From Dictyostelium discoideum (taxonomy: Eukaryota): a stretch of 64,000 nt of DNA. Shown one piece after another: positions 41,850 to 43,224 of the stretch (the first letter of the stretch is position 1; each line of letters starts with the position of its first letter). The stretch covers positions 2,304,001 to 2,368,000 of the forward strand of contig CM000154.2 in NCBI GenBank assembly GCA_000004695.1, read 5' to 3'. Both the position numbers and the translations under genes were made by a program. Below the pieces are notes generated by a model, which was not told where the DNA came from, did not search any database, and saw only the letters and a program-made list of their open reading frames with translations.

Positions 41850-43224
41850 ATGAAAAAAAAATTAAAAATAAAAGAATCAATTGATCAAAAAAGTAATCAA
41901 ACTGATATTGGTAATAGTTCAGAACTTACAATAAATTCAAGTAATGGTTCAAGTTGTGCTAGTGTTGATTTTTCAAAAAAAGAATTAATAATTTCAACAT
42001 TATCAAATTTTTTTAACTTTAAATCTACAATAAATTCAATAGGAGAATTCATTGAACAGGATTCCATTGATTATAAAAATGAAGATATTCAATTAAAAAA
42101 CCAACAAAAACTTTATTTTCAAATAAATCTTTTACATTCAATAAAAATGAACATCAATTAAGTAAATCATTAACAATTGAAGGTTCATTTAAACTTGATT
42201 CACTCTCTATATCTGCTGAAGTTAAAAGTAAATTTTCAAAAGAGTCATTAGATGTTAAAGTTGGTAAAGAAGTGTATTTAACTAGTTCAGTATCAGTACC
42301 AAGATTAGAGTTTTGCATTAATCCATTAAAGGTAAAACTAAGTGATGAATTTTATTCAAAATTAAATAATGTTGAAACTCATGGTGAATTAATTAAAGTT
42401 TTTAAAGAGTACGGTGAATTCTATCCAAAACGGTATATATTAGGAGGTATGATAACAAATCATGAAACTCAAAAATTTACAACAATTGAAAATCTAGAAT
42501 CAAAACTATTATCTTTAAGTGCTGGTGTTAATGCTGCAATAGGTCCCGTTAAAGTTGGAGGTAGTGTTGGAGGTGAATCAGCAACCGATGAAAAAAAATC
42601 AAAACAAAATGAAGAAAATAGTTCAAAAAAAGATGTTATTGGAGGTGATCCAAGTAAAACAGGCTCAGAATGGGTTTCAAGTTTAAGTGATATAAATAAT
42701 TGGGGTATTATTGGTATAGATGTTTATCCAATTATGGATTTAATAAAAAAGAATGATAACACATTATATAAAAAATTAGAAAAAATTAAAAATTCAATTA
42801 CATTAACTTGTAATGTTAAAAAATGGAAAAGAATAGATTTTTGGGAGAGCGAAGATTTTGAATTTCAAGGTAAAAAATTTAATATTTCAATTAAAAAGAT
42901 AAATGAAAGTGTTATATATCCAAGTATAAATTGTTTAGAGGAAGGAAATATGGTTATTAAATATTGTGGTCATGGAGAAGATCCAAGATACTATCAAATA
43001 CAAAGTATAATATACCTTAATTTTTTAATTTATATATTTTATAAAATATAAAATTTTAACTTTTAATTTTAAAACAATATTTAGATTTTATTAAAGGTTG
43101 TGATAATGGTTCCTGTACCAATAGAGCCAGTGGTGGTGGTACAATACCTGATTCTTTTACATTCTCATTCCACATTTTTATTAAACCAGATGAAAATGAT
43201 ATTTGTTCATTAATTATCAAATAA
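41850..43224 (+). CDS. MACPF (membrane-attack-complex/perforin)-like domain protein. Apparent +1 frameshift near 42085-42100 (A6 run) joins the 41850 ORF to the 42083..43004 frame; probable 3' exon 43085..43224 (intron 43005..43084). Intact gene with sequencing error, or pseudogene
   Basis: Downstream frame contains the MACPF signature Y-G-x-x-[FY]-x6-G-G as KVFKEYGEFYPKRYILGG (42420..42458). It is preceded by alternating-polarity beta-hairpin-like segments (EHQLSKSLTIEGSFKLDSLSISAEVKSKFSKESLDVKVGKEVYLTSSVSVPRLEF) and followed by a second amphipathic Gly/Ser/Ala segment (LLSLSAGVNAAIGPVKVGGSVGGESATDEKK), the arrangement of TMH1 / signature / TMH2 in perforin and C9. Upstream ORF 41850.. (MKKKLKIKESIDQKSNQTDIGNSSELTINSS...) is in frame 0 and the MACPF part in frame 2; inserting one A in the A6 run makes them continuous. 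The stop-free 46-codon segment 43085..43224 (NFIKGCDNGSCTNRASGGGTIPDSFTFSFHIFIKPDENDICSLIIK*) after a GTATAA donor suggests a terminal exon. Confidence 0.5.

Follow-up and report, generated by a model that had tools for sequence, protein, structure and literature searches.

Pore formation by amoebae is usually discussed in terms of saposin-like effectors, the amoebapores and the Apl proteins of Dictyostelium. Among perforin-type (MACPF) proteins, pleurotolysin B (PlyB; PDB 4oej/4ov8/4v2t) of Pleurotus ostreatus works with an aegerolysin partner, PlyA, that is often encoded next door. The locus described here belongs to the perforin-type class, whose fold is unrelated to that of the saposin-like proteins and for which no Dictyostelium literature was found in the searches made. 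It lies in a very AT-rich, 64,000-nucleotide stretch of chromosome 5 of Dictyostelium discoideum AX4 (the window), where region 41502-43224 is very probably the AX4 allele of one two-exon gene, DDB_G0289093 (XP_636400.1, UniProt Q54I05), that encoded a PlyB-like MACPF protein and recently became a unitary pseudogene. The conceptual protein is 100% identical to the public entry, and the UniRef name for Q54I05 is already "MACPF domain-containing protein." The domain annotation is thus already in databases, and the gene is undescribed in the literature searched, where nothing was found on DDB_G0289093, on Dictyostelium MACPF proteins, or on the new assemblies. Two of those assemblies, both labeled D. 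discoideum, carry intact alleles of the gene: P0002 (ACTFIR_001857; 542 amino acids [aa]) in L001 (GCA_054859385.1) and P0006 (ACTFIW_007944; 545 aa) in L003 (GCA_054859355.1).

An earlier note on this DNA, made from the letters alone, had called a MACPF domain from a signature in the frame that opens at 42083, and both the frame and the call were confirmed by translation and profile searching. The Pfam profile PF01823 matched the AX4 frame with an E value of 5.5e-34 and 118.6 bits (cut-off, 21.5), covering profile positions 2 to 211 of 214 at window positions 42212-42778, and matched the intact P0002 with an E value of 5.2e-33 and 115.4 bits. The "Fungal MACPF-like domain" profile, PF22693, scored 34.0 bits on AX4 and 37.9 bits on P0002 (cut-off, 27.5). 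In AX4, the PF01823 and PF22693 matches fall wholly in the second frame. The signature, YGEFYPKRYILGG, fits Y-G-x-x-Y-x6-G-G, with the T-H of the Y/W-G-T-H-F/Y-x6-G-G pattern replaced by E-F. Across an alignment of 150 sequences, relatives show little or no variation at Y296, G297, G307, and G308.

Structure prediction, run on the intact orthologue rather than on AX4, recovered the MACPF fold, with its central sheet and two clusters. A single-sequence AlphaFold run on P0002 was uninformative (predicted local distance difference test [pLDDT], 33.6) and was replaced by an AlphaFold2 run using the 150-sequence alignment, which gave a pLDDT of >90 through the MACPF core. Long strands were predicted at residues 248-265, 299-318, 366-372, and 394-402, and helical or low-confidence clusters at residues 207-247 and 321-365. 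Alternating hydrophobic and polar patterns are visible in the segments corresponding to the two putative transmembrane hairpin regions, TMH1 and TMH2 (SFKLDSLSISAEVKSKF; LSLSAGVNAAIGPVKVGGSVGG), where the model has a pLDDT of <50. All of the top 50 Foldseek matches in the PDB were MACPF/CDC proteins; PlyB came first (E = 1.8e-8), followed in order by Bth-MACPF, GNIP1Aa, TgPLP1, C9, Plu-MACPF, perforin, and MPEG-1. PlyB was also first when the PDB was searched with the family profile (E = 8.6e-25). Outside the core, neither the N-terminal nor the C-terminal domain matched a Pfam family (none at E ≤ 0.1 for the C-terminal ~125 aa), and the pLDDT of the C-terminal ~125 aa was 30 to 55.

By profile and by fold, PlyB is therefore the best solved relative of the Dictyostelium protein. 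Neither protein has a signal peptide, and in each the MACPF domain precedes a C-terminal region, which is beta-rich in PlyB. They differ in several respects. No aegerolysin-type partner adjoins the Dictyostelium gene, which is flanked by csaA and a TIG gene in every allele, AX4 included; the search for such a partner covered this locus. The C-terminal ~125 aa, modeled at low confidence, have no detectable similarity to the C-terminal domains of PlyB, the Dictyostelium protein possesses an N-terminal domain and a K/E repeat linker that PlyB lacks, and the gene is broken in AX4. Other structurally characterized MACPF proteins, including Bth-MACPF (3kk7), Plu-MACPF (2qp2), perforin, C9, MPEG-1, and TgPLP1, share the predicted fold and the signature region but have only 12 to 17% identity, carry other accessory domains, and are secreted.

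Relatives in sequence databases are distant and patchily distributed. When 1.84 billion representatives were searched exhaustively by HMMER with P0002 as the query, 156 proteins matched at E ≤ 1e-3 and only 17 at E ≤ 1e-10, and the best matches outside the D. discoideum complex had 27 to 31% identity (E from 1e-17 to 1e-21). A word-based search across 5.8 billion proteins added no others of intermediate identity, two profile queries to a word-indexed protein search returned the Dictyostelium proteins themselves and nothing more, and the databases searched held no annotated orthologue in other dictyostelids and no other dictyostelid protein above ~31% identity. Named relatives include a Halomonas sp. 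protein (WP_318726629.1), a protein from a metagenome-assembled genome (MAG) of "Candidatus Finniella inopinata," a cluster represented by Nostoc carneum BAY29806.1, and proteins of Glomeromycota (Cetraspora and Racocetra). A related-locus search with a narrow alignment of four bacterial-type relatives gave the "Candidatus Finniella" MAG as its sole match. "Candidatus Finniella inopinata" is a protist endosymbiont.

The bacterial relatives (Halomonas, Finniella, and Nostoc) have the same small N-terminal domain as the Dictyostelium protein and are collinear with it through the MACPF domain. Because the best of these matches run in one stretch over query residues 7-408, the N-terminal domain of ~70 residues, which is disabled in AX4, belongs to the architecture of the family. 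Many bacterial relatives differ in having signal-peptide-like N termini and other C-terminal modules (Sel1 repeats, Vps62, and B-lectin), and none carries an intron or the Dictyostelium C-terminal domain. For example, P0012 carries Sel1/TPR repeats, and the Nostoc-type P0018 carries Vps62 and B-lectin modules at its C terminus. This variety within the bacterial subfamily suggests that the C-terminal modules are interchangeable targeting domains.

The intact alleles define what the AX4 locus once encoded. P0002 and P0006 read through all of the AX4 pieces in order, from the MSKEQLI N terminus through the K/E repeat, the sequence of the first open reading frame (ORF1), and the MACPF frame to the terminal exon. 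The K/E-rich repeat upstream of ORF1, which the earlier note had offered as possible 5' coding sequence, is indeed coding in these alleles, where translation starts at an ATG equivalent to 41502 (Table 1). Gene order is constant in all assemblies (Aldedh, FNIP, csaA, MACPF, TIG, SCAMP, Pirin, and F-box), with csaA and the MACPF gene head-to-head, and the placement of the gene between two surface-glycoprotein genes proposed from the letters alone was correct, with csaA (gp80) on one side and the IPT/TIG gene DDB_G0289095 on the other. DNA identity of L001 and L003 to AX4 is a uniform 90 to 94% over 21 kb, and synonymous divergence (dS) between AX4 and the intact lineage is 0.07 to 0.09 in the MACPF gene and in both neighbors. 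The identical gene order and uniform divergence rule out P0002 as a paralogue; P0002 and P0006 are orthologous alleles of the AX4 gene.

Alignment of AX4 DNA with L001 and L003, base by base, revealed four disabling lesions (Table 1). The first, a 10-bp deletion, shifts the frame at about codon 6, the second replaces Lys56 with a stop, and the third and fourth are length changes in A-runs. As a chance result of the third lesion, the ATG at 41850 is in frame. The fourth lies at Lys191/192, where the confidently predicted strands of the MACPF domain begin. The frame changes predicted by the lesions, 0>2>0>2, agree exactly with the three-frame translation of the AX4 locus. That translation also bore out the description of two frames overlapping over only 76 nucleotides: the second frame is open from 42083 to 43051 and shares only 42083-42158 with ORF1, with the A6 run at 42095-42100 inside this overlap. 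The single-base interruption reported in the earlier note is a real frameshift, but not the only lesion, as three others lie upstream at 41514/41515, 41654-41656, and 41853-41861. No ATG-initiated AX4 frame now encodes a complete MACPF domain. A full-length MACPF protein cannot be made by AX4, which probably has no functional MACPF product. Besides the lesions, AX4 differs from the intact alleles by several in-frame indels, among them one extra in-frame unit of the K/E repeat (27 to 36 bp, at about 41746-41781).

Table 1. Features of the MACPF locus and its flanking genes in the AX4 window
Feature	Position	Strand	Basis or remark
csaA, contact site A protein gp80	38795..40339	-	Sequence identical to P08796 / XP_636399.1; transcription diverges from that of the MACPF gene
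Ancestral start codon (MSKEQLI...)	41502..41504	+	Intact alleles P0002 and P0006 start at the equivalent ATG
Lesion 1, 10-bp deletion	between 41514 and 41515	+	DNA alignment; intact alleles have AATTGATCGA; frame shifted at codon ~6
Lesion 2, premature TAA	41654..41656	+	Alignment and translation; AAA (Lys56) in intact alleles
27-nt tandem repeat coding for K/E-rich linker	41677..41809	+	Ancestral coding sequence
ORF1, 103 aa, frame 0	41850..42161	+	Residues ~112-192 of the 542-aa version, then out-of-frame read-through
Lesion 3, A9 run (+1)	41853..41861	+	DNA alignment; AAAGAAAA in intact alleles; frame shifted
"Intron" of XP_636400.1, 272 nt	41911..42182	+	Coding sequence in intact alleles; very likely artefact
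Main open frame with MACPF domain and most of C-terminal domain	42083..43004	+	Translation and Pfam
Lesion 4, A6 run (-1)	42095..42100	+	DNA alignment; A7 in intact alleles
MACPF signature YGEFYPKRYILGG	42410..42448	+	Translation
Genuine 80-nt intron, GTATAA...TTTAG, phase 1	43005..43084	+	Position kept in intact alleles (L001 11487-11565)
Terminal exon and TAA stop	43085..43224	+	Already in XP_636400.1
DDB_G0289095, IPT/TIG domain surface protein	44039..45715	+	Pfam and protein match

A homopolymer error in the reference, leaving the gene intact in AX4, was one of two explanations first offered for the frameshift, and A-runs are error-prone. To that general concern can be added a suspicious cluster of mismatches nearby, at 40636-40978. 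Independent data leave this explanation with practically no chance of being right. L002 (GCA_054883475.1), an independent chromosome-level, AX4-like assembly, has 0 differences from the window over 41400-43300. Over 21.4 kb it has 35 mismatches and 21 gaps relative to the reference, and since these many differences, mostly homopolymer lengths, lie elsewhere, L002 was not copied from the reference. Assemblies of four Logan read-sets (L004 to L007: SRR26869257, SRR26869266, SRR28564540, and SRR26869268) also carry the AX4 lesions wherever they cover the locus. The same A6 run is thus present in five independent data sets, and the three other lesions include a 10-bp deletion and a T-for-A nonsense change, which are not homopolymer errors. 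Because L002 and the four read-set assemblies share them, the AX4 lesions are not reference errors, and the alternative first offered alongside sequencing error, a recent pseudogene, is the one that four lesions against syntenic intact orthologues support.

Both frameshifts sit in A-runs, which are the usual sites of slippage, so that the two ORFs could in principle be joined by programmed frameshifting or transcriptional slippage, or could represent separate genes. This too is very unlikely: the intact alleles encode one continuous protein over both ORFs, slippage cannot mend the upstream 10-bp deletion or the TAA, and ORF1 alone has no Pfam domain match. Reference error, separate genes, and recoding were all rejected on the shared A6 run, the other lesions, and the continuous intact protein.

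Patterns of substitution place the loss of the AX4 gene in the recent past. Ratios of nonsynonymous to synonymous divergence (dN/dS) were calculated by the method of Nei and Gojobori. Between AX4 and the intact L001, dN/dS was 0.35 for the N-terminal part, 0.23 for the MACPF domain, and 2.16 for the C-terminal domain (29 nonsynonymous and 3 synonymous changes); between L001 and L003, both intact, it was 0.23 for the whole gene. A MACPF domain ratio still at 0.23 implies that purifying selection acted on the AX4 allele during most of the time since its lineage separated and, therefore, that the loss is recent. Changes were also assigned to branches with a third lineage, L009 (D. cf. discoideum), using the second half of the MACPF domain for the MACPF counts. 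Nonsynonymous and synonymous changes numbered 17:1 in the C-terminal domain and 3:6 in the MACPF portion on the AX4 branch, 5:0 and 0:1 on the intact L001 branch, and 10:2 and 11:8 on the L009 branch. On the AX4 branch, the two domains differed with a Fisher P value of 0.0017, from small numbers. The C-terminal domain appears from these ratios to evolve at or above the neutral rate, intact lineages included, a pattern that may reflect either positive selection or relaxation, as the counts are small and fit either.

The public gene model provides the remaining explanation, in which the AX4 gene is functional as annotated and 41911-42182 is spliced out to give a 340-aa MACPF protein from the ATG at 41850. 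XP_636400.1 joins ...NQTDIG to SFKLDSL... across this stretch. The statement in the earlier note that no intron can reconcile the two frames is therefore formally wrong, since the public model uses a 272-nt intron to do so, and right in substance, since that intron is very likely an annotation artefact bridging the frameshift. In favor of the model are its presence in RefSeq and UniProt, the complete Pfam MACPF match that it keeps, and the low dN/dS of the MACPF domain. Against it, several features of the "intron" argue for an artefact. Its GC content is coding-like, at 0.21 versus 0.07 in the genuine 80-nt intron, its acceptor is CAATTGAAG (GAAG), and a second annotation pipeline chose a different donor, 41962, on identical sequence (P0003). 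In the intact alleles, the stretch is an open reading frame, and residues 1-215, which include it, make up the part with a dN/dS of 0.35. It encodes P193, K207, and K214, invariant across distant relatives, together with the earliest elements of the MACPF domain to be predicted with confidence (strands at residues 188-191 and 198-204 and a helix at 207-215), all of which splicing would lose. The ATG at 41850 is in frame solely through the +1 slip of the third lesion, and AX4-like read-sets carry another frameshift inside the supposed exon. On these grounds we judged the 272-nt intron an artefact and a functional gene as annotated improbable.

The GTATAA...TTTAG intron, in comparison, joins the main ORF in phase to a stop-free segment, 43085-43221, that is followed by TAA at 43222-43224. 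The proposal of a terminal exon at this position was correct, although the exon is not unannotated, as XP_636400.1 already ends in ...DENDICSLIIK.

Several points weigh against a recent unitary pseudogene of a PlyB-like pore former. The 340-aa product of the public model would keep the entire Pfam-defined MACPF core, and selection may still be acting on this core domain in AX4, a reading with which its low dN/dS would also agree. Synonymous divergence of the lineages that carry the intact alleles is ~9%, which makes them close relatives and not near-identical strains. To our knowledge, pore-forming activity within the subfamily has been shown for PlyB only.

Loss of the gene has continued in AX4-like material and has occurred separately elsewhere. 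A 1-nt deletion at 42489, within the MACPF domain, was present in 4/4 Logan assemblies, and a 28-nt deletion, 41559-41586, in all three that reach that far 5'. These extra deletions are further decay of the gene. L004 to L007 are identical to AX4 at every base substitution. In L009, the gene lacks the AX4 lesions and is broken independently: BLASTN gave no match for ~600 bp over the N-terminal half of this domain, part of the gene is replaced by 2.3 kb of other AT-rich DNA (GC, 0.20; 7644-9957), and what is left carries frameshifts of -1 and -2 together with a CAA>TAA change. The 2.3-kb replacement had no match among the other loci compared.

Taken from the intact alleles, the ancestral protein would have been of ~540 residues without a signal peptide, with an N-terminal domain of ~70 residues, a K/E-rich linker, a PlyB-like MACPF domain, and a fast-evolving C-terminal domain of ~125 residues. 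By homology to PlyB and other MACPF proteins, the intact protein would oligomerize into rings on its target membrane, where two helical clusters (residues ~205-247 and ~319-365) would unfurl into membrane-inserted beta-hairpins lining the pore. Choice of the target or of a partner probably falls to the variable C-terminal domain. Because the hydrophilic N terminus, MSKEQLIEIDFEDES, shows no apparent signal peptide, the protein would be released or targeted by an unconventional route, as PlyB is. Pore formation, and a role for the C-terminal domain in directing it, are the functions that we infer for the intact protein.

A broader proposal would make the gene a PlyB-like toxin that was acquired from bacteria, now exists as a functional/nonfunctional polymorphism within the species complex, lost independently at least 2 times, and acts as an effector in an arms race, a role that the rapid change of its C-terminal domain beside a more constrained MACPF domain would suit. 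The nearest relatives are bacterial and include one from a protist endosymbiont, which is consistent with acquisition, yet the proposal as a whole seems doubtful. If true, the setting could be antagonism between strains, defense against predators or bacteria, or self/non-self interactions. Apart from that proposal, the patchy distribution (bacteria, Glomeromycota, and one dictyostelid lineage), repeated loss, and fast C-terminal domain make the protein a candidate for a dispensable, conflict-related effector.

For users of the reference genome, the DDB_G0289093 model is very likely wrong, with a coding stretch labeled as an intron, and a pseudogene flag is warranted for the gene in AX4 and its relatives. 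Knockout or expression studies of this "MACPF protein" in laboratory strains would target a dead gene. What may be the sole perforin-type protein of D. discoideum is seen with its true domain layout in the intact 542- to 545-aa alleles, which are the proper material for asking whether social amoebae use MACPF pores.

Additional observations concern the flanking DNA and the assemblies compared. The mismatch cluster at 40636-40978, in the csaA-MACPF intergenic region, is dense and comprises ~30 positions at which the AX4 reference departs from L002, to which it is otherwise nearly identical; at most of them L002 reads A or T and the reference reads C, G, or A. Poor reference quality over this part of the csaA promoter region could account for the cluster, as could local hypervariability of the segment. 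In L009, the csaA-MACPF spacer is rearranged, and a DDE_3 transposase gene lies near csaA (1415-2626). Between AX4 and the divergent D. discoideum-labeled lineage, csaA has a dN/dS of 0.57. Over window positions 31800-53250, L001 and L003 are only 90 to 94% identical to AX4, housekeeping genes included (dS, ~0.09), a divergence far greater than expected within one species that suggests cryptic lineages. Two tandem FNIP-repeat genes at 35270-38500, ~74% identical to each other, are modeled inconsistently: L002 has a single 866-aa gene, and L001 and L003 have two, of 574 and 605 aa.

At a distance from the MACPF locus, a tRNA-Asn(GTT) gene at 17010-17084 (+) is followed on the same strand by a GC-richer block (GC, 0.30 to 0.40, with strong A>T skew) containing ORFs at 17360-18253 and 18219-20270, the second of which has a reverse-transcriptase domain (RVT_1; E = 1e-36). 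From these features, 17010-20270 looks like a tRNA-gene-targeted non-LTR (long terminal repeat) retrotransposon of the TRE type.

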